Assembly (NCBI GenBank): GCA_036679605.1
Contig: JAZDCZ010000074.1
Coordinates: forward strand, 1 to 10,163
Source of the DNA: Gemmatimonadota bacterium
GTDB taxonomy: Bacteria > Gemmatimonadota > Gemmatimonadetes > Gemmatimonadales > GWC2-71-9
Direction: 5' to 3'
DNA length: 10,163 nucleotides
Each line of letters begins with the position of its first letter. Positions within the stretch are counted from its first letter, which is position 1. Position numbers and translations under genes: made by a program. Shown here one piece after another: positions 154 through 10,163 of this stretch. Below the pieces are notes generated by a model that saw nothing but the letters and a program-made list of their open reading frames with translations, made no database searches and was not told where the DNA came from.

Positions 154-279
154 CGGATCGGCGATAAGCGGCGTGGAATAGCGCCACCGAGATCGCCGAG
201 CCTGAAGAGGCTGTTGCCAGATTCTACCGCGTTCGACCTGCTCAGCTATCCCACGACGGTCTTCATCGTTTTGTTAGAC
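148..279 (-). other. attC site (132 bp)
   Basis: Minus strand: GTCTAAC-AAAACGATGAAGACCGTCGTGGGATAGC...GCTATTCCACGCCGCTTATCGCCGATCC-GTTAGCT. It shares a 26-nt identical block with the 6681-6814 attC. Confidence 0.92.
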
Positions 280-548
280 TGCACCCTGGCGATTTCGCCG
301 CAAGGGAGACAACGCCTCGTGTTGAGCGTTCAAGAACAGGCTCCATGCCTGACTTTTGTATCACGTCACCAAGCCAATGCGGGTCGAGTCGAAGCTTCTC
401 ATAGCTGCTGACGGTAAAATTCCAGCCGGATTCGGTTCTCTCATGAACAAGATCATGGACGCGCACGTGACTATCCAGATACTCAAGGAAACACGTGAGT
501 ACTCGGCGGCTATCTGATCGAACTGGAATGAAACGTGCGCCTCCCTGG
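263..548 (-). pseudogene. 5'-truncated CDS remnant, probably the C-terminal part of a class I SAM-dependent methyltransferase
   Basis: The 263..466 frame extends upstream without a start codon as QGGARFIPVRSDSRRVLTCFLEYLDSHVRVHDLVHERTESGWNFTVSSYEKLRL. From memory, this resembles the C-terminal region of a bacterial class I methyltransferase family. No glycine-rich SAM motif is present, and the frame is closed upstream by TAA in the half attC (595-593). Confidence 0.62.
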
Positions 549-598
549 CGCCAGCGCCGTGACAGGACCGAGCCACTAGCTTCAACGAACAGTTAGAC
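549..598 (-). other. Truncated (5' half) attC of the KAP cassette
   Basis: 51 nt after the KAP stop, the minus strand reads GTCTAAC-TGTTCGTTGAAGCT...GTCACGGCGCTGGCG, resembling the left arm of the 4189 attC (CTAAC..TTGAAGCT..GTCAC). TGGTCTAAC is 8/9 complementary to the KAP cassette start GTTAGCCCA. No GTTRRRY partner follows. Confidence 0.7.
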
Positions 599-649
599 CA
601 GACGGCCAATGTCCCTCTGACGGCCGGAGACACTGCAGGCCCAAAAGAC

Positions 650-3600
650 TCAACTGCCCTCTCTTGGCGTCAAGCCTTTCGGGCACTCAACCCCGATCGT
701 GTCCGCCAATTCAATACGGAGAGCCTTCGCTTCCTCCGTGTCTCCCTCGGGTTCTGACCTGAGCATGTCCTCCAAACGGCGCTGGAAGTCTCCAACACCG
801 CTCTTGTTCGGATGAGAATCAAGGAAGTCGGGCTCGGCCTTCAGAAAGTCAATCATCCAACGCAGTCCATCGGCATTTCCTAGCTTTAATAATGAGGTGA
901 AGAGTCCAGATACGGCACGACTGTCATTCAGAACTTCCAATTGCGCAACTTCCTGCCCGTAGAACTCAAAAAAGGCTGCAGGAAGTTTGCCCTGGGCTGT
1001 AACAGCCACCTCAAAGAGGTCGGACCGGAAGACCTTCCTTGTGTCTGGGTGAAGAGGCACCAGTAAGTCTTGCCAGTGCGTGGGCTTGAGATATTCGGGT
1101 TTTTCCTCGCCTGCCACTGTCTTGCGGGCATGTTCCACAAGCGCATCCCGGTATTGGTGCCCAAGTTCAAAATCGATCTTCGCTTCGACGAGATCAACGA
1201 CGAGCTCCGCAAGGTTATCTTCGCCGTGGAGCTCGATCTGCCATCTATCGAGGTCGGTATCCTGGAGGCCCGCAACGCAGACTCTCTGCAGCTCTTCCGC
1301 CGCCCCCGTTCTAATCATGAGCGCGTACAACGAGCCTCGATCGGGAGCGAATTCCTGCTCTTCGAGATAGTTAAGGAGCTGAATCTTCTCCACTAGCAGA
1401 GTAGCAAAGGTCTCTTGTGTTTCCTCCGTAAGGGTCTCGGAAATAAGCGGCCACTTTTCGAGAACAGTTTCAGGTGGAAAAAACTGGGCGAAGTCGGCGG
1501 CTTTCGCGGCGTGGCGCAGGCACTCGACTACGAGCGGTTTGATGGCATCGTTAGCTCCGGCGAGCTCAAACAGGAGCGCGCATTGGTCCGTTCCAGATAG
1601 GTATTCAGTGATAGCAGAAACAAGGTCCTGTGGCGGCGCGGCAATCAGTTGTGTCGCCGATTGATGCCCCGCAGCAGCGTTGCCGGTCCCCGGCGGCGCC
1701 GGCAGCGACGGCTGAGCCTCGAGGTGAAGCAGGAGACATCGAGCTGCTGCTGCCGTATTTACACCCCTGCCCTTTGAGTAGACGGCGTGAAGGTGATGCA
1801 AAAGGTGGCCACCACTTGCCATAGTTGAAAGTGCCTTCTGTGCAGACACGACGTCGGATCGGAGATCGACTAGGATGTTCAAGAGCGCCTCGACGGATGT
1901 GGTGTCCAGGGCATCGGGGCTCTCGAGGCGCGATCGCGCCGTGGCGACAACGGTTTCCCACTTCAACTCGGCGTTAATAACGCGAAGGACGTGTAGGGAA
2001 TCAACAAGCATCGGGAGAAGCGCGTCGTCGCTGAGCCCGGCAGTTACGGCTTCCTCGAAATTGTCCTTGGTCACGTCGACGCGGAACACCTTCCAGAAAC
2101 GGGCGTCCGAGTCGCGCTCGGCGAGGTAGTGACAGACGAGAAGGCTATTCTGAGCAGGCCCCGGTATCTCAATCCCTTCCGCGAACGCGTCTTGGAAATT
2201 GAGTTCCTTCAAGGTCTCCAAGAGGGCAACAACGGTGATAGACCAGTCCGCCGCGGAAAACCCTTTGTCTTCTTCTGTGTGGCCGGGAGAAAGAGTAGCA
2301 AGGAGACGTTTGGCGAGTTGTCGGTCTCCGCAGAGGCGACACATAGCACTCAGTCCAAGGCTCGTTTCGGTGCCGAGAGGCTGCCATTTCTTGACAGCGA
2401 GCGCGGCGGTTCGAAGGTGGCTGAGCGTGTGCTGCTTCATCGCCGAATCCAGTCCCTTGATGATTTCAGACTCTGCGATGCACCATGCAGCTTTCGCAAG
2501 CTTTTCTGGCTCCTGTTCGGACCACTGAAAGAAGTCGATCGACTCAAGAACCTCCCAGAGCCCAGGAGAATCGACCAGGCTTTTCAGGGCCTCCGCGTCG
2601 GCCTGCTCCAAAATGTGTGTGAGCTTGTCTCCTAGGATGAGCTGCCGAGCGACGGAAACGCTCGTGTTGAAAGCGAGCGCGGCGAGGTTGTCTCTGATCT
2701 CGGGACTGACGAGGTCCTGGACTTCAGGAGTGGGCAACTCGGCGTTTCGAAGCACTTTTTCGACGTCGTCACCTCGATGTCTCAAGAGAACGTAGTATGC
2801 GAGATCGGAAAGAGGCAGCTGGTCCTGCCACTGACGATGAAGACCGCCGATGTCGTTCACATACAGTTTGAGATTTCGGGGAGTGGGAGAATTCATCGGT
2901 TCGAGTAACGACGCGTAAAGTCGGTAGACTGCGTGGAAGTCGTCTTGATTGTGATCCGGAAGGGCTTCGTGAAGCTGCTCGTTTAAGTATGTTCGCCAGT
3001 TAGAGACGAGGAGCGGTGGCACAGATAGACGGAGTTGGAATGTTTTGCTGAGAAAAGAGCTCGCGACCTCCTTGGAGGCGATGGTATCAGCCCAGAGATG
3101 TTGAATCCCCTGGGGATCATACGGAACCACAATCCAGAAACGCGCGATCCACGCAGGGCAGTGGTGCTCGCTAAGCTGAAGGAATGTGCGAAGAGATGAC
3201 CATATTGACAGCGCATCATGGGGAGCGACCCTGTCGAGATTGTCGACTACAAGAACAGTGCGGCGGTCAGTGTCGGAACCAAGTGCAGCCTGCATCAGAT
3301 CAACGAAGATCGACTGAAACTCTACAGATGTGGGTTCGGGTGTTTCTATTGCTTCGGTACGGGTGGTCGTTGTCGAGCCTTTCACGAGAACGGCCCATGC
3401 TTCTGTGCTCGCGTTGCGAAGCCGCGCCCAGAGCAGAACGAAGAGCGGTGCAAGGGTGAAGAGAAGACCAATCAAGAATTGCCAAGCGAAGGTCCTACCA
3501 GGCCCCGGAATGAGGTATACCGGGTCCCGGAGCCCACTATTCATAAGGGCGAAGCCAATCGGCACAAGAAACGTGCTGGTGAGAAGGTATTTCGCAAATG

Positions 3601-3994
3601 GGGTCAGGCGTGGAGTCGTGACAGTTTCGGAGACCTTCTTCCGTCTGGAAAGATGGTCCCTTCTGTCGGCCCACTCCTTCTCTGAGATCCAGTCAGCATC
3701 GACGAAAGCGCTGATTAGAGTCTCAAGGAAGGTCCGCCGGAGTGGATCGCCCTCGTGAGCCCAGGCGTCGAAAACGAGGAGAGTTAAATTCTCGTCGCGG
3801 TCTGTTTCGCCGCGAAGAAGCTTCACGACGGTAGATTTCCCAGAGCCCCACCCTCCCTCGAGGCCGATTGCTTTCCCACCGCGTTCGGCGCGGATCAACT
3901 CAGCGAGGGCTGTTGCTATTCTCTGGTGCGATCCAAAAGCATCGGACGATGCCGGGGCGTCAGAGATGAGTTTTGTGCGGCAATCAGATGCCAT
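650..3994 (-). CDS. Cassette 4: KAP-family P-loop NTPase with two inserted TM helices and a long helical C-terminal region
   Basis: Motifs are N-terminal SDAP..DAFG, Walker A IGLEGGWGSGKS (3856-3833), FDAWAHE, Walker B VLVVDNLDR, FLSKTFQ and TPRNLKLYVN. Two TM segments lie between Walker A and Walker B (YLLTSTFLVPIGFALM; FLIGLLFTLAPLFVLLW). GGAGG lies upstream of the ATG. Confidence 0.92.
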   Translation of the reverse strand: MASDCRTKLISDAPASSDAFGSHQRIATALAELIRAERGGKAIGLEGGWGSGKSTVVKLLRGETDRDENLTLLVFDAWAHEGDPLRRTFLETLISAFVDADWISEKEWADRRDHLSRRKKVSETVTTPRLTPFAKYLLTSTFLVPIGFALMNSGLRDPVYLIPGPGRTFAWQFLIGLLFTLAPLFVLLWARLRNASTEAWAVLVKGSTTTTRTEAIETPEPTSVEFQSIFVDLMQAALGSDTDRRTVLVVDNLDRVAPHDALSIWSSLRTFLQLSEHHCPAWIARFWIVVPYDPQGIQHLWADTIASKEVASSFLSKTFQLRLSVPPLLVSNWRTYLNEQLHEALPDHNQDDFHAVYRLYASLLEPMNSPTPRNLKLYVNDIGGLHRQWQDQLPLSDLAYYVLLRHRGDDVEKVLRNAELPTPEVQDLVSPEIRDNLAALAFNTSVSVARQLILGDKLTHILEQADAEALKSLVDSPGLWEVLESIDFFQWSEQEPEKLAKAAWCIAESEIIKGLDSAMKQHTLSHLRTAALAVKKWQPLGTETSLGLSAMCRLCGDRQLAKRLLATLSPGHTEEDKGFSAADWSITVVALLETLKELNFQDAFAEGIEIPGPAQNSLLVCHYLAERDSDARFWKVFRVDVTKDNFEEAVTAGLSDDALLPMLVDSLHVLRVINAELKWETVVATARSRLESPDALDTTSVEALLNILVDLRSDVVSAQKALSTMASGGHLLHHLHAVYSKGRGVNTAAAARCLLLHLEAQPSLPAPPGTGNAAAGHQSATQLIAAPPQDLVSAITEYLSGTDQCALLFELAGANDAIKPLVVECLRHAAKAADFAQFFPPETVLEKWPLISETLTEETQETFATLLVEKIQLLNYLEEQEFAPDRGSLYALMIRTGAAEELQRVCVAGLQDTDLDRWQIELHGEDNLAELVVDLVEAKIDFELGHQYRDALVEHARKTVAGEEKPEYLKPTHWQDLLVPLHPDTRKVFRSDLFEVAVTAQGKLPAAFFEFYGQEVAQLEVLNDSRAVSGLFTSLLKLGNADGLRWMIDFLKAEPDFLDSHPNKSGVGDFQRRLEDMLRSEPEGDTEEAKALRIELADTIGVECPKGLTPREGS

Positions 3995-4109
3995 GGTCTA
4001 GCTCGCCCTCCAAGGTCGATGTCGTACGGCTCATATCGTTACTCTTGTGTCGGTGTCTTTTTCGGGGGTTGCAATCCAGTGCAAGAGGGGTTTCCTCGAT
4101 CTTATGTTG

Positions 4110-4189
4110 GGCTAACGTTGCCTTAAGCTGCGGGCGCGACGCTTGCGCCAGCAAGCGGTGTGACCGTCAGCTTCAAGGTGTTGTTAGCC
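4110..4189 (-). other. attC site (80 bp) of cassette 3
   Basis: Minus strand: GGCTAAC-AACACCTTGAAGCTG...CGCTTGC TGGC GCAAGCG...CAGCTTAAGGCAAC-GTTAGCC. CCTT(G)AAGCTG pairs with CAGCTTAAGG with one extra base. CTGGCTAAC is complementary to the cassette start GTTAGCCAG at 6687. Confidence 0.95.
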
Positions 4190-4244
4190 AGCACACTCCC
4201 AGCTCGCCCAGACACCTCCGGAAGAGCCGCTCCTGACGTACGCA

Positions 4245-6536
4245 TCACGGCGCACTCTCCTTGCCATCTCCCTCCTCGCTTCTGGTTGGCGCCTCTACAG
4301 AGGCACTCGGGTTAGACGCTGAAGGTGGAGTGGCTGGTGCAGGGTGTCCAACTCGGAAGCGAGAAATGAAGTCACTCCGGTTATTTACCCTCATCAATAC
4401 AGGGTTCTCGCAACTGGACGCCTTTCCAAAGAACACGACGTGCCTTTCTTCGAGGCTTGGAAGCACATGGGCGTAGTCTGGTCCTAGATAGTTCTCAAGA
4501 AAAGCCATTCCTGTATCGTCGAAGGTGCGAAACGCCAGAATGGTATTGCACTGATTCAGAATCGTTTTTGTTACGTTGGCCGTTCTCTGCGATATCAATA
4601 AGCACCCCATCCCGTACTTGCGCCCCTGCAAAATCGCGCGACTTGTCCCGGCAACTGCATGCTTATCTGAATCAATCGTCAGGTTGTTGTACTCAGGAAC
4701 CAGGGAGTGCGCTTCTTCGAATACGAGACATACCTTCGCGTTGTCACGCATTTGGTCTTGGCAGGCTGCCAAGCAAGATTCAGCGACGATTCGTGTTATT
4801 TCGGCAGGAGTCGTCTCTCGAAACGCCGCTACCTGAGCCCAGTCATCTTTACCGGGACCAGTCTTTTTGTTTCGAAGGTCACCAGCCTGGATGGAAGCAC
4901 TCAATTGGCCCGGATTGTAGATCTTGATCTTTGACGCGCAACCGTCAGACAAAAAGGCGGCGATATCATCACGAATCGCGACCTTAAGATTCGCAAAGCT
5001 CCCTCCCTGTGATCTCGAATCCTCAACTTTGTCACGGTCTTTGTCGGCAGCAGTCCTAATCCTCTCGATGCATTCGGCCTCGCCAGCAGCGTCATGGTAT
5101 GCAGCGAGTTCTTGAGCATATTGGTTGGTGAGGTCGAGGCAGACCACCTTGATGCCTTCCGCAAACATCCGCTCCAGAATCTCGATCGCGAGAAATGATT
5201 TTCCAACACCGAGGATCCCCAGGATCGCGGTGTTGTGAGTGACGAGCTCGTGGATGTTCTTAAGCCTTATCGGGTACTTGGTGGAAGGAAGGTGTCCAAT
5301 CGCGTTCTCGTCTAGATCTTCAGATGGACCCTTGCTCGTAAACACTGGCGAGTGCATGGCAGGAATCCACTTGACCGACTTGAAACTACCCGTACCCGAA
5401 TCCCAACGACCGATCTTGCGGGCTTCGGCGCGCGCAAACCCGCGTGTGTTTCGTTGGAACACAGTTTCTTCACGAGTCAGGCCGTCGGTGATCTGGTAAA
5501 GAACTGACCTTCCCTTGATCGACGCCTCCACGACCGCTCCTTCACTCACGCTGGCCTCTTGAATGACCTCCACATAAAGCCTGTTAATCGAGGTGTTCTC
5601 GGCAACCAAGCCCACGAGGTCGCTCGCCCGTTGGGGATAGGTCTCCTGATCGAGAACACTCTTAAGGTATCCGTCGGGAAGAACCCTCGCCGCGTATCCG
5701 CTTGGGATGGTCTTCGCTAGTACCTCCACCCTATTCTGCGCTTCCGCTGGTAGCTCAAGAAGCTTCGCACGTAGGAGCATTCCGAAATCCCTCCCGAAGT
5801 AGCCCAGGACTTGCGATAGCTGCGGTCTCGCTCCCCGATCATTGACTATGAGATAGTCACCAAACTTGGCGTCCCTTGCGGGCTGGCGGACAATTACGAT
5901 GCCCGGATCGTCGAAGCCCGCGATTTCTCCCGCGACTCCCAAGACTTCGGTACTTCCCCAGATCCTGCGGATCTTGCTGAGAAAGGTGGCGAAGTGAGCC
6001 TCGGGGCGAAGCAGAACTATGACGATTAGGACCAACAGAATTGTAAACACCTGCAATGAACTATCACGATGGAACAGGCCGACGGCAGTAATGATCACGA
6101 TGCTGAACAAGATCCGATCGTTCCCGAACTGGTTTGAGAGCTCCTTTGCGGATGTTCCGATTCGGAGCCATGGCCCTTCTCGCTGAGATCGCAGCAACAA
6201 TGCGCATGCGGAAGAGATCCCGACAAGGACCAGGTACACTAAGACTGCGACAGCAAGAAATGACTCAACACTGTCAAACGCAGACCAGTCAAACGCTAGC
6301 CAGCATGTTACGAAGGCAGCAACCGCTGAGGCAATGTGATTAGCGGGGCGCTCGAAGTAGGGCGTCACGAGAAAGCTGCTCAAGAGCAAGCTTAGTACTC
6401 CGGCGACAAACCAGAGACTGTTGCCGTCAGTTGCCGGGATCCATGAACCGAACGCCAGTCTGTTGGCCGCGAAGAGTAGGCCAAGATAGAGAACCAAAAA
6501 CAGGAATCTTATCTTACTGCTCTCAATTGGTTTCAC
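4245..6536 (-). CDS. Cassette 3: membrane-anchored HerA/FtsK-superfamily ATPase (DUF87/HerA-like) with an N-terminal multi-pass TM domain
   Basis: Walker A GILGVGKS (5219-5196) follows THNTAIL. Other HerA-like motifs are VVCLDLTNQY, Walker B LVFEEAH, ILQGRKYG, LISQR and ILNQCNT. About six hydrophobic helices lie in the first ~190 aa. Start placed at GTG 6536 (GAGG upstream); TTG 6584 is the alternative. Confidence 0.88.
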   Translation of the reverse strand: MKPIESSKIRFLFLVLYLGLLFAANRLAFGSWIPATDGNSLWFVAGVLSLLLSSFLVTPYFERPANHIASAVAAFVTCWLAFDWSAFDSVESFLAVAVLVYLVLVGISSACALLLRSQREGPWLRIGTSAKELSNQFGNDRILFSIVIITAVGLFHRDSSLQVFTILLVLIVIVLLRPEAHFATFLSKIRRIWGSTEVLGVAGEIAGFDDPGIVIVRQPARDAKFGDYLIVNDRGARPQLSQVLGYFGRDFGMLLRAKLLELPAEAQNRVEVLAKTIPSGYAARVLPDGYLKSVLDQETYPQRASDLVGLVAENTSINRLYVEVIQEASVSEGAVVEASIKGRSVLYQITDGLTREETVFQRNTRGFARAEARKIGRWDSGTGSFKSVKWIPAMHSPVFTSKGPSEDLDENAIGHLPSTKYPIRLKNIHELVTHNTAILGILGVGKSFLAIEILERMFAEGIKVVCLDLTNQYAQELAAYHDAAGEAECIERIRTAADKDRDKVEDSRSQGGSFANLKVAIRDDIAAFLSDGCASKIKIYNPGQLSASIQAGDLRNKKTGPGKDDWAQVAAFRETTPAEITRIVAESCLAACQDQMRDNAKVCLVFEEAHSLVPEYNNLTIDSDKHAVAGTSRAILQGRKYGMGCLLISQRTANVTKTILNQCNTILAFRTFDDTGMAFLENYLGPDYAHVLPSLEERHVVFFGKASSCENPVLMRVNNRSDFISRFRVGHPAPATPPSASNPSASVEAPTRSEEGDGKESAP

Positions 6537-6680
6537 GACCGGACCCTCATGAATAAGCCGAACGTAGGCCGCATCACCCGACAATGTTTGTGAGCCGGAG
6601 ACTAATCGGGATAAATGACCACATGAACGTCAGGCCAACCTTGCATTGCTTTGTCAGAACCGACTCTCCTAACCTTGACT

Positions 6681-6814
6681 GGCTAACGGATCGGCGATAA
6701 GCGGCGTTGAATAGTGCCGCCGGACTCCGCCGAGCCAATGAAGGTTGATGCCAGAACGGTACAGCGGTCGTTCGAACCACGCTATTCCACGTCCGGTTCA
6801 ACGCCTTGTTGGGC
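6681..6814 (-). other. attC site (134 bp) of cassette 2
   Basis: Minus strand: GCCCAAC-AAGGCGTTGAACCGGACGTGGAATAG...CTATTCAACGCCGCTTATCGCCGATCC-GTTAGCC. Its inverse core CGCCGCCCAAC is complementary to the cassette's left end GTTGGGCGGCG at 7702. Confidence 0.92.
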
Positions 6815-6821
6815 GGCGGCG

Positions 6822-7685
6822 CTACTGCTTGCACGTGCAACCTGAGGAACCCAGCTTCTTGGCCAGTGTGCGACACGTGGGGGGAACGAACCAAGTGGCT
6901 TGGACTGTACGCTCACTGGGAGTGAGGCGAGCTACGACGTAACGCATACCCACGTACACCTCGTCATCTGATCCAAGCGCGATCGAGTTCGGATAGAGGC
7001 CTCCCAGTTCGATCCTCTGGAGCACTTGCAGCTCACCGCCTCGATACGAGAGGATCCGGTCGGTAGCAACGATGAGAATTCCCAGAGTTGGGTGCTTGAT
7101 AGCAACTTCAGCAGCCGTCCCGAGAGGCGTTTCGCGAACGATTCGCCACCGGCCGTCATCGCCACGACGGATGTACTTTATCGAGCCCTCACGCAGGCCT
7201 AGATGGGCGAGTCCGGAAACCAGAAGGACCTCTTCACCAGCGGGGAAGAACGCGACCGGGTTGCCACCGGCGCCCCAGGTTTCACTGAGGCGATCGTTGG
7301 AACTCCCATCCGAAGAGAGCCACCAAACACTGCCACCCCATTCGCCCGCGTTGAATCCGACGAGATAGCCGTCATCAACCTTGAGATATGACCTGGCCCC
7401 GCGTGCGGCGTCGCCGAGGCTTGCATAAGCGGTCTCTGGCAACGGCAAGGAGACCTCGAGTCGCTGTTGATACTCCTGGACCACCACGCGCCCCGACTCG
7501 GCCCCGACGTGCCATTCACCCCCGAATCCATGGTTGGCGCACATGAAGAGAGAGTTAGACCACTCGTCGGGGGCTCCGAACTCCGCCCAGCGAGCGATTT
7601 CCTGTGGTGGGGCCTCACCTGCGAACTGCCAGGCATCGGCGCTTGCCGCAGTCAACAGAAACAGCAAGACGATCGCATACTGCAT
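6822..7685 (-). CDS. Cassette 2: secreted hypothetical protein (~287 aa, possibly beta-propeller-like)
   Basis: ATG 7685 lies just inside the cassette and begins a signal-peptide-like MQYAIVLLFLLTAASADA ending in AxA. The body has Gly/Trp-rich beta repeats (GYLVGFNAGEWGGSVWW, GLAHLG, LYPNSI, VYVGMR) and a C-terminal Cys cluster. The stop lies 7 nt before the attC. Confidence 0.82.
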   Translation of the reverse strand: MQYAIVLLFLLTAASADAWQFAGEAPPQEIARWAEFGAPDEWSNSLFMCANHGFGGEWHVGAESGRVVVQEYQQRLEVSLPLPETAYASLGDAARGARSYLKVDDGYLVGFNAGEWGGSVWWLSSDGSSNDRLSETWGAGGNPVAFFPAGEEVLLVSGLAHLGLREGSIKYIRRGDDGRWRIVRETPLGTAAEVAIKHPTLGILIVATDRILSYRGGELQVLQRIELGGLYPNSIALGSDDEVYVGMRYVVARLTPSERTVQATWFVPPTCRTLAKKLGSSGCTCKQ

Positions 7686-7695
7686 CGGCTTCGCC

Positions 7696-7783
7696 GCCCA
7701 ACGCTGGGCGTCAGCCGCTGACGGAAGCGGGAGCGAGGAACGAGCATCCGCTATAGGCAGTCGGCTGCACGCCGATGTTAGGC
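7696..7783 (-). other. attC site (88 bp) of cassette 1
   Basis: Minus strand: GCCTAAC-ATCGGCGTGCAGCCG...CGGCTGACGCCCAGC-GTTGGGC. The arms GGCGT(G)CAGCCG and CGGCTGACGCC pair with the characteristic single extra base. Confidence 0.93.
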
Positions 7784-7795
7784 CGCAGGTGTGCA

Positions 7796-8467
7796 CTACA
7801 CGTTGATCCCCAAGTCGCTAAAATGTACGGTCTTTCCGGAAACGTATTCCGAGAGAAATTCATCCGAAAAAGTGTACTTAAAGCTGTGGAGGACCTTCGC
7901 TCTTTTCATGTTGCTGGCCTTCACGTAGATGTCGAACCTGTACTCACCTTCAGCAAGGGCGAACGGCGGTTTCCCTTCTGGAATGACGAACAGAATCGAC
8001 TTTACGATGACCTTCTTTGATTCAAGCGGGAAACTGCTGAACGTACCGATGGTGTTGTCGGCATGCAGGTAGTGCCTGCCCTGCCAGAATTTCAACTGGT
8101 CAATCTCTAGCGTCGGGTGAAGAACTGCGAACTGGCCGTCGGCTGTACGTACCAGCTTGAGGGCAATCCACTCGACTACACCCTCTGCATACCCGGTGTT
8201 GACGAACGACAACGGAAGTATCACCGTCAACTCTGCGTGTACCGGTCGTGCCTGCGCAAGGATAACCTCGGCCCCAAACACCGCTAGCGAAAACTCGAAC
8301 AACTCGTTCTTGAACGCTGACAATATGGCTACCGCCAATGAGGCAATCGACAGGCCGAGCGGAAGCCAAAGGGCAGCATTGTCGCCTCCTCGAATCACGA
8401 ATGCTCCGACAAGTGCCGCGGCCACAATGCCGGAAACGGTCAGGAACAATCGGTGTGGGAAGCGCAT
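7796..8467 (-). CDS. Cassette 1: hypothetical membrane protein (two N-terminal TM helices, beta-rich C-terminal domain)
   Basis: The 223-aa ORF fills the attI-attC interval, with GAGGTG just upstream of the ATG. Hydrophobic segments are LFLTVSGIVAAALVGAFVI and LWLPLGLSIASLAVAILSAF. Confidence 0.85.
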   Translation of the reverse strand: MRFPHRLFLTVSGIVAAALVGAFVIRGGDNAALWLPLGLSIASLAVAILSAFKNELFEFSLAVFGAEVILAQARPVHAELTVILPLSFVNTGYAEGVVEWIALKLVRTADGQFAVLHPTLEIDQLKFWQGRHYLHADNTIGTFSSFPLESKKVIVKSILFVIPEGKPPFALAEGEYRFDIYVKASNMKRAKVLHSFKYTFSDEFLSEYVSGKTVHFSDLGINV

Positions 8468-8497
8468 GTCACCTCGTTGAGTGCTGTGTGGATCGCG

Positions 8498-8520
8498 GCC
8501 TAACTATTATCTGACCCGCC
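8498..8520 (-). other. attI recombination site (core GTTAGGC, 8504-8498)
   Basis: The minus strand reads GGGTCAGATAATA-GTTAGGC between intI and the first cassette gene, with no upstream inverse core. GTTAGGCCGC is complementary over 10 bp to GCGGCCTAAC at the first attC (7786-7777), as expected for an integrated cassette. The upstream boundary is approximate. Confidence 0.82.
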
Positions 8521-8548
8521 CCCGCCTCGGGCTATCACACACATGGTC

Positions 8549-8626
8549 TTGGGCGAGCAGTACACACCCTTCTATACTCCAACAGCTTGGCCTGGCGCAA
8601 GGCAAGGACGCTGAAGATGATATGCT
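8549..8626 (+). promoter_or_regulatory. Candidate intI promoter(s)
   Basis: TTGGGC(8549-8554)-18 nt-TATACT(8573-8578), and an extended -10 TG-A-TATGCT (8618-8626). Motif match only. Confidence 0.33.
8571..8600 (-). promoter_or_regulatory. Candidate cassette promoter Pc
   Basis: Minus strand TTGCGC(8600-8595)-18 nt-TATAGA(8576-8571) points toward attI. The -10 is imperfect. Confidence 0.25.
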
Positions 8627-8645
8627 GCGGAGTTATGCCGCCACG

Positions 8646-9605
8646 ATGAAGGCGCGGCTACTTGACCAGGTACGGGCTACGATCCGGGCGAAGCATTACA
8701 GCTACCGGACCGAGAAAACGTACGTTCAATGGGTTCGGCGCTTCGTTCTGCATCACGGCAAACGTCACCCGGCTCAGATGGGAGAGGACGAAGTGCGAGA
8801 CTTTCTGACACACCTGGCAGTCAAGCGGCAGGTGGCCGCAAGTTCGCAGAATCAGGCACTTGCCGCGATCCTTTTTCTCTATCGAGAGGTGCTTCGGCTC
8901 GAGATAGGCTGGATCGACGGAGTCGTGCGGGCAAAGCGACCGTCACGAATCCCGGTCGTACTGACGCGGGCGGAGGTTCGATCGGTTTTCAAGCACCTGC
9001 GCGGCACACCGCACCTGGCGGTGGGTTTGCTCTACGGCGGTGGTCTTCGCCTGACCGAATGCCTCGGACTTCGCGTGAAAGACATCGACTTCGAGTACGG
9101 CCAGGTCCTCGTCCGTGATGGAAAAGGACAAAAGGACCGTGCAACGATTCTGCCCGGCGCGGTCCGTGATGCACTACTTGCTCATCTGAGAGAAGCGAAG
9201 CGGCTACACGAGCGCGACCTTGCTCTGGGCTTCGGACGTGTTCCCCTCCCCTTCGCCCTCGCTCGAAAACACCCAAACGCGGACCGAGAGTGGGGTTGGC
9301 AGTTTGTGTTCCCGGCATCCAGGCATTGCACCGACCCACGGACCGGCAAGACGGTGCGGTTCCATCTCGTCGACAGCGCAGTTCAGAAAGCTGTTAAAGA
9401 AGCTGTCCGCCGCTCCGGAATCGCGAAACCGGCGAGCTGCCACACCTTCCGCCACAGCTTCGCCACCCACCTACTCGAGGACGGCTACGACATCCGAACC
9501 GTTCAACAGTTGCTCGGTCATCGCGACCTCAGAACGACAATGATCTACACGCACGTACTTAGACGCGGCAGCCTAGCGGTACGCAGCCCTCTCGATAACC
9601 GCTGA
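8646..9605 (+). CDS. intI: Integron integrase (tyrosine recombinase, IntI family)
   Basis: The N-terminus [33 protein letters not shown] is typical of IntI. Catalytic motifs are [40 protein letters not shown] and TTMIYTH. The IntI-specific insertion [23 protein letters not shown] is present. Start placed at ATG 8646 (ATG 8622 is possible); the ORF-track start at 8481 runs through attI. Confidence 0.97.
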
Positions 9606-9639: not shown

Positions 9640-9744
9640 CGTGCCGTCCTGACGCTACGAGCAGCCGGCAGGTTGCGTTTGGCACCCGCGCTTCCGCGGT
9701 GCCAAACGGAGTCTGCCGGTTGCCTCTTCGTCAGCCGTGGCACG
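9640..9744. repeat. Long imperfect inverted repeat between convergent genes (terminator-like or REP-like)
   Basis: Nested arms are CGTGCC/GGCACG, CTGACG/CGTCAG, GCAGCCGGCAG/CTGCCGGTTGC, CGTTTGGCAC/GTGCCAAACG and CGCG/CGCG around a CTTC loop (9691-9694). Confidence 0.85.
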
Positions 9745-9760: not shown

Positions 9761-10163
9761 CTACCCCGCCAGATCCCTCGCCGTCAACTCCGCCACCGAC
9801 TCACGCCGCCCTGACGCCAGCTTGGACATGATTTCCTTGACCGGCGCCTGGCACTCGCCGGGTAGACTTTCGTGATCGACTTTGCCGCCGCCGCGTAACA
9901 CCTCGACGATCCAATCGACCGTCACGCTGTCGGGAGCAAAGGCAAGTACAAGCTCTTCGTCTGCCGGCCCGGTCGAGCGCACCAGCCCGACCGCCGTAAG
10001 ATCCTTGACCACCGCGTGTACTCTGCCCACCGGCACGTCCAAGGTCGCGGCAAGTTGGTCGAAGGTCACCGCATCGGTGTGACGGATCGACGCACGAGCG
10101 AGTTCTGCGACCATCGCCAAGCCGATGTACTCGCGCAGCGCGAAACTATCCATGCTCACAGTG
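9761..10163 (-). CDS. 3' end of a gene with an Rrf2-like winged-helix domain, probably a YihY/BrkB-family membrane protein
   Basis: VTFDQLAATLDVPVGRVHAVVKDLTAVGLV...LAFAPDSVTVDWIVEVL and the terminal LTARDL match the Rrf2-like pattern, without Fe-S cysteine clusters. The frame is open to the window edge. The YihY fusion is inferred from known architectures. Confidence 0.62.
   Translation of the reverse strand, partial: TVSMDSFALREYIGLAMVAELARASIRHTDAVTFDQLAATLDVPVGRVHAVVKDLTAVGLVRSTGPADEELVLAFAPDSVTVDWIVEVLRGGGKVDHESLPGECQAPVKEIMSKLASGRRESVAELTARDLAG

Follow-up and report, generated by a model that had tools for sequence, protein, structure and literature searches.

The closest described relatives of the protein reported here are the HerA motors of the SIR2-HerA (Gao19/Nezha) and DUF4297-HerA anti-phage systems. 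In part of the text of PMC11291478, HerA alone is described as a low-activity split spiral, with the base of the ring as the supposed DNA entry; this otherwise nearly inactive HerA is activated by DUF4297, which is stacked on the HAS domains. Here, we describe TM-HerA, a HerA-type ATPase with predicted transmembrane (TM) helices encoded by a one-gene integron cassette on contig JAZDCZ010000074.1 (assembly GCA_036679605.1, Gemmatimonadota bacterium). We refer to the whole analysed stretch, 10,163 nucleotides, as the window. TM-HerA is a single-gene, membrane-fused variant of HerA-based systems and lies outside every named system tested. From its genomic context, it probably serves in defence against phages or other incoming DNA.

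The cassette lies on the minus strand (6686..4116, 2571 bp) and holds one gene. Its core and inverse core were read directly from the sequence: the start core is G^TTAGCC at 6687/6686, the cassette ends with the G at 4116, and the inverse core, GGCTAAC (4189-4183), complements the start core perfectly. The attC of the cassette (4110..4189, minus strand, 80 bp) folds into a canonical hairpin with a z of -6.25, and none of 200 shuffles was as good. These limits are exactly those of the initial annotation, and a single open reading frame (ORF) fills the cassette as it had claimed. The longest frame spans 4245-6584, with start TTG 6584. Because close homologs start at GTG 6536, the likely product is a 763-aa protein (P0001; 4245..6536, minus strand). 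Just 150 bases upstream and 55 downstream of the gene are left within the cassette, so a partner gene does not fit.

The N-terminal part of TM-HerA is a predicted six-helix membrane module (residues 7-176; 6009..6518, minus strand), based on family hydropathy, the bias of lysine plus arginine (K+R) and the helices of an AlphaFold model (113-row alignment, pLDDT 87, pTM 0.73). The family-mean hydropathy gave hydrophobic segments at residues 11-29, 40-58, 64-82, 97-115, 137-155, and 158-176, which agree with the model helices and recur in a wider set of 112 sequences; a crude scan of the single sequence found 4-5 segments only. The estimate of about six N-terminal TM helices was therefore sound. 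In the family alignment, mean K+R was 2.7 at the N-terminus, 4.7 in loop 4, and 4.2 after helix 6, against 0.9, 0.3, and 0.9 in loops 1, 3, and 5; loop 2 had only 0.8. These counts suggest an N-in/C-in topology and therefore a cytoplasmic motor and very short outer loops, predicted at about 10 residues or fewer.

In 8/8 pairs, the membrane module shows purifying selection (nonsynonymous pN 0.09-0.16 vs. synonymous pS 0.37-0.77). No sequence relative of it was found in Pfam or the PDB, a match to CedA included. Matches to PKD_channel (E 0.012, in 1/55 members) and to pentatricopeptide proteins were rejected as chance. When residues 1-300 were folded without an alignment, pLDDT was 44, too low to use, and a three-copy complex prediction of the same residues (score 0.00) carries no weight in either direction. 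Structure searches with the whole model covered the motor only, and the ESM Atlas gave only unnamed DUF87 clusters plus a 0.86 lead for the N-terminal part.

The stretch that follows had been described as one beta-rich middle of about 200 aa. It is beta-rich, but it is two domains rather than one unit: an unassigned beta domain, defined by strands in the AlphaFold model (residues 196-290; 5667..5951, minus strand) and a HAS barrel (residues 306-402; 5331..5621, minus strand). The second is assigned as a HAS barrel because model residue 306 aligns with residue 1 of the HerA chains 4d2i and 9c1m in VIA-align. A reading of residues 196-290 as another HAS barrel was not supported (hhalign probability 0.7%). 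The membrane and beta modules are fused N-terminal to the HAS barrel.

Profile and fold matches place a HerA RecA-like motor with a short insertion at residues 403-730 (4347..5330, minus strand). Its motifs, all on the minus strand, comprise a Walker A GILGVGKS (residues 440-447; 5196..5219) and a Walker B LVFEEAH (4707..4727), each kept in 111/113 homologs, and QGRKYG (4611..4628), kept in 113/113, which we take to be the arginine finger. With SQR, these motifs are conserved in 111-113 of the 113 aligned homologs and, among 112 more distant homologs, in 106-112, so the motor is intact as first annotated. Model residues 306-724 match whole HerA chains from their first residue. The top fold was the repair HerA 4d2i (Z 23.1, 326 residues, root-mean-square deviation 4.0), tied within 1 Z with 9c1m (Z 22.9), whereas TrwB and FtsK reached Z 16.4 and 16.9. 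DUF87 scored 35.3 bits, above its cut-off of 23.2. With a HAS barrel before the RecA-like core, intact motifs, and DUF87, TM-HerA belongs to the HerA clade of the FtsK-HerA ATPases, and the preference for HerA over TrwB, VirD4, or FtsK was justified.

By sequence, the closest solved proteins are anti-phage HerAs (8wiv, E 1.6e-14; 8xau, E 2e-13), ahead of the repair HerA 4d2i (E 7e-5). TM-HerA shares with SIR2-HerA and DUF4297-HerA the HAS barrel, the RecA-like motor, and a defence-island context, and 8wiv, 8xau, and 9c1m are its best sequence matches. It differs from them in having no SIR2 or DUF4297 gene in the cassette or seen among the neighbours, in the fusion of six helices and a beta domain to the HAS side, and in a shorter insertion: Walker A and B are about 165 residues apart (family median 155), compared with about 275-290 in 8xau and 8wiv. 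The HerA-NurA repair complex provides the top fold match (4d2i). However, NurA was missing from all six hosts tested, and TM-HerA is accessory, mobile, and predicted to be membrane-bound.

No full-length PADLOC match was found, only a local stretch, and no NCBIfam cut-off was approached: the two HerA_antiphage models gave 51.4 bits against a cut-off of 850 and 42.7 against 800. The first impression that this architecture is not a named system was thus confirmed. We found no description of the family in the limited set of full texts searched; candidate tables of defence predictions may already list it.

To place the gene in its family, a genome scan gave 158 relatives, of which 80 loci were kept, and a metagenome scan gave 12 loci; three duplicates (L045, L089, and L091) were removed before counting. 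Among 8000 scored candidates, 1389 matched at E<=0.001, a number that will include other HerAs, and at E<=1e-30 the family comprised 585 clusters at 50% identity. Among the matches listed, 111 of 115 representatives of at least 650 aa had at least three N-terminal hydrophobic windows in a crude scan. A tree of 70 proteins of at least 680 aa (quick search, SH-aLRT only) intermixed 15 labelled phyla. TM-HerA is a large, patchy, and widespread family. Searches of 60 relatives of the genome of the window and of 60 congeners of another host, G062, found no full-length copy. The GC content of the gene was below that of the distant flanks in 60/65 loci. Near-full-length copies occurred in 2 of 72,556 plasmid records, and no family member was found in 50,697 phage records or in viral contigs.

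Some members depart from the common form. P0121 (1273 aa) has about 520 extra C-terminal residues that look nuclease-like, with a weak PDDEXK_1 match (E 0.019, below cut-off). A search for longer forms of the family found none, which is weak evidence, and the seven shorter matches are most probably fragments. Bradyrhizobium plasmids carry a distant 616-aa relative (L083:5404-7254), 31% identical over the motor and with a short hydrophobic N-terminal part, flanked by insertion sequence (IS) elements and an Abi fragment. In L002, L034, L044, L068, and L087 a frameshift or stop divides the gene into two ORFs, reflecting either decay or sequencing error.

The initial annotation had taken TM-HerA for a stand-alone gene without a partner, and this held beyond the cassette. 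We clustered the 436 neighbours within three genes of the 88 loci, and only restriction-modification (RM) subunits, (serine) recombinases, and other island genes recurred in at least three loci; no recurring partner of another kind was found among them. SIR2, DUF4297, NurA, and VirB were not seen among 142 immediate neighbours searched with Pfam over their first 450 residues (58 without any match), nor among 131 second neighbours searched with PADLOC. At the level of whole genomes, NurA was found in 0/6 hosts, while the control was positive in 7/14. A SIR2_2 gene was present elsewhere in the genome of 1/5 hosts and DUF4297 in 0/5, although the DUF4297 search also missed every control genome.

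The lone-cassette setting recurs outside the window. A canonical attC directly follows the gene in 6/85 other loci, with z values of -5.9 (L001), -1.2 (L007), -4.7 (L012), -5.6 (L026), -5.7 (L073), and -2.5 (L088). These copies fall in three branches of the tree: L001 and L088 in that of the window (L088 placed there by 80% identity), L007, L012, and L073 in a branch of marine gammaproteobacteria (about 42% identity), and L026 in a Bacteroidota branch. In L001 and L007, attC sites lie on both sides with one ORF between them; the upstream attC of L001 and the downstream one of L007 have the right fold shape and a weak z. Moreover, the 99% identity between L001 and L003 begins exactly at a GTTCGGC core, and L007 and L013 are near-identical from a GTTACAC core onward and differ before it. 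The short attCs of L001 (7920-7980 and 10405-10464) have GTTCGGC cores instead of the usual GTTRRRY, and an intI fragment lies near this array.

The attC detector was relaxed twice after reading flanks by eye; its versions gave one downstream candidate (L080), then 2/88, and then 8/85 compared with 15/425 shuffles. L080 was not confirmed later, L021 was dropped as a tRNA-Thr, and L020 was dropped for weak pairing. Since the detector misses the two long attCs of the window, 6/85 is a floor. The integron setting recurs independently, but in only a small part of the family.

Some family loci also lie close to defence genes. An RM gene is adjacent in 14/79 loci and within three genes in 19/79, compared with 27 (0.46%) and 64 (1.1%) of 5847 ORFs in the genome of the window, a baseline from a single genome with an RM reference set drawn from the loci themselves. 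On the 70-row tree, it takes 12 label changes, at least 11 of them forced, to account for the 15 RM-linked rows; the RM-linked copies are scattered, and the association therefore arose many times. Further genes seen nearby are, among others, Shedu, AbiJ, HEPN, TIR, DarTG, IetAS, PD-Lambda-3, and ThsB. One annotated plasmid carries the family gene inside a type I RM operon, and another has it near AbiEi/AbiEii and reverse transcriptases. Together with the patchy spread, low GC, and integron cassettes, the neighbourhood is defence-like, and family members do not lie consistently in conjugation or secretion operons or beside nurA.

Integron-borne defence cassettes, such as Sucellos, provide a comparison at the level of the cassette. 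The main text of 10.1101/2024.07.02.601686 reports that integron cassettes often encode defence, some with membrane effectors, including a predicted membrane pore. The words "HerA" and "ATPase" are absent from that main text, and the TM-HerA cassette is 2.57 kb long.

Regarding mechanism, a membrane effector switched by the motor, which would make TM-HerA a one-gene anti-phage system, is the reading that we prefer, at slightly less than even chances. The fused membrane and beta module probably takes the place of a DUF4297-type partner, because it precedes the HAS barrel, on the face where DUF4297 docks. A HerA-type hexamer would sit at the cytoplasmic membrane, on its inner side, and phage DNA engaging the motor ring would switch on ATP hydrolysis. 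The conformational change would be relayed through the HAS and beta domains to a ring of membrane helices, which may depolarise or permeabilise the membrane and lead to abortive infection. Taken jointly, the hexamer, the DNA trigger, and the membrane effector form a tentative proposal, a little less likely than a motor-switched effector on its own.

Several observations weigh against a defence role or a membrane effector. Integron cassettes carry many non-defence genes, and no clear attC was found in 79/85 loci, so that the integron is a minority niche, though an independently recurrent one. There is no RM gene within three genes in 60/79 loci, the RM enrichment carries the narrow baseline given above, and the RM label on the tree is not clearly unlike shuffles (43/500 as low). 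The RM label is absent from all 17 rows of a mainly alphaproteobacterial clade, several members of which lie amid housekeeping genes. In the protein, Walker A and B are separated by an insertion about 110-130 residues shorter than that of the defence HerAs, and DNA handling may therefore differ. Across the wider family, the membrane module conserves only R10, W42, P59, P64, and G138 at 80% or more, and it has no conserved acidic, catalytic, or channel-like charged set.

A rival reading is defence without a pore, in which TM-HerA would trap or pump DNA while tethered to the membrane. Its helices would hold the motor where phage or plasmid DNA enters, and the ring would capture and stall the DNA, drain ATP, or feed nucleases such as restriction enzymes. 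The few conserved polar residues in the membrane module, the recurrent insertion inside RM operons, and the C-terminal extension of P0121 with its weak PD-(D/E)XK match all fit, and part of PMC10853773 proposes that HerA/FtsK domains deliver invader DNA to restriction components. However, one or two helices would suffice for an anchor, whereas the module has six and these are under purifying selection; the cassette copies also travel without a nuclease. A nuclease-like fusion was seen in 1/148 of the representatives listed and in none of the longer proteins, the latter being weak evidence. Type I RM operons are also hotspots for insertions in general. The structural predictions favour neither a pore nor an anchor. 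On balance, we consider the trap-or-pump reading the strongest rival, but less likely than not.

Outside defence, TM-HerA could be a one-chain machine for DNA import or export, Ced-like or akin to a conjugative coupling protein, that spreads as mobile cargo. As described in part of PMC11823120, Ced DNA import combines a membrane-bound FtsK-HerA ATPase (CedB/CedD) with CedA, a protein of 6-7 helices, and a multi-pass membrane part joined to an FtsK-HerA motor resembles this arrangement. There is also a weak CedD match (E 3e-6), and relaxase, MobC, or VirD4 genes occur on the mobilisable elements that hold 4/80 loci (L051, L061, L068, and L070). TM-HerA differs from Ced in being bacterial, in its single chain, and in that no pilin partner was seen; its CedD score was 26 against a cut-off of 600. 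TrwB/VirD4 and FtsK likewise have N-terminal membrane helices on a pumping-type ATPase, but TM-HerA has a HAS barrel, lower fold scores against them, and values below the Pfam cut-offs (TrwB, 13.2 vs. 20.5 bits). The loci showed no secretion operon and no recurring pilin, VirB, or competence neighbour, and the elements of L051 and L068 already have their own VirD4 family gene. Moreover, the rarity of near-full-length copies on plasmids and the outer loops of about 10 residues or fewer argue against transport, which is improbable.

The weakest rival is an incomplete module in which the cassette alone does little and a partner (SIR2, a nuclease, or NurA) acts from elsewhere in the genome: it can draw on the near-inactivity of DUF4297-type HerA alone, as stated in part of PMC11291478, and on the SIR2_2 gene of one host, but the SIR2_2 and NurA counts above, the occurrence of the intact gene as a lone cassette across unrelated phyla, and a HAS face that already carries a fused module make it about as improbable as transport.

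Returning to defence through the membrane module, we also considered a one-chain "DNA ejector", in which captured phage DNA would be pumped towards or through the protein's own helix ring, out of the cytoplasm. This direction is suggested because the membrane module sits on the HAS side, where DUF4297-HerA has a continuous channel. It is the most speculative of our proposals and very unlikely; if true, DNA injection would be reversed or jammed, a form of defence that needs neither a nuclease nor a partner gene.

The cassette is part of an array that adjoins intI and attI, as in an integron, although the junction at 6713-6782 is not spanned by a single contig of the sequencing run in which we found the DNA. 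The integrase IntI (8481..9605, plus strand; TIGR02249, 455 bits vs. a cut-off of 265) lies on the strand opposite to the cassettes, which are on the minus strand, and an attI core was read at 8498-8504. Four attC sites follow (7696-7783, 6681-6814, 4110-4189, and 148-279). The attC at 6681..6814 (minus strand), which belongs to the preceding cassette and gives the TM-HerA cassette its start core, was recognised by its cores. Like the one at 148-279, it is long and non-canonical in an unconstrained fold (z -0.49 for 6681-6814), and the two share a 41-nt repeat. In that one sequencing run, a single contig covers 126-6713 without differences; the run is probably the source sample and not independent support. 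The link to intI is unbridged by one piece because run contigs break inside the repeated attC (6713-6782). Joints 189-6741 in run contigs were rejected as excision: with 18-19 foreign letters and sides of 24-25 bases, they are read as attC sites of other organisms. No RNA run was listed as containing the sequence, and a promoter scan gave chance level only.

The next cassette gene (650-3994, minus strand) encodes a 1114-aa KAP-family NTPase (Pfam, 81.5 bits) with local PifA and QatA matches, a long C-terminal part of no assigned family, and no PDB sequence match; it is a candidate second one-gene defence cassette in the array. After it, the segment 263-598 (minus strand) contains an inverse core (592-598) without a matching core and a 67-aa remnant resembling the C-terminus of class I SAM methyltransferases, probably the result of a deletion fusing two cassettes. 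Of the first two cassettes (6822-7688 and 7796-8467, minus strand), one codes for 288 aa with a signal-like N-terminus and the other for 223 aa including a hydrophobic N-terminal segment; neither product has a match in Pfam, PADLOC, or NCBIfam. Beyond intI there are an inverted repeat (9661-9723) and an Rrf2-like winged-helix ORF (9761-10159, minus strand). The host assignment is uncertain: the bin to which the window belongs as a complete 10-kb contig measures 6.7 Mb and has 6.3% contamination, and most of the 60 relatives searched are 2-5 Mb.

At the level of the family, TM-HerA is widespread, encoded by one gene, predicted to be membrane-bound, and has no recognisable enzyme effector, and it escaped naming in PADLOC 2023 and NCBIfam June 2026. 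The HerA defence systems that we checked consist of a soluble motor and a separate enzyme. TM-HerA would couple a DNA motor to immunity in a new way.

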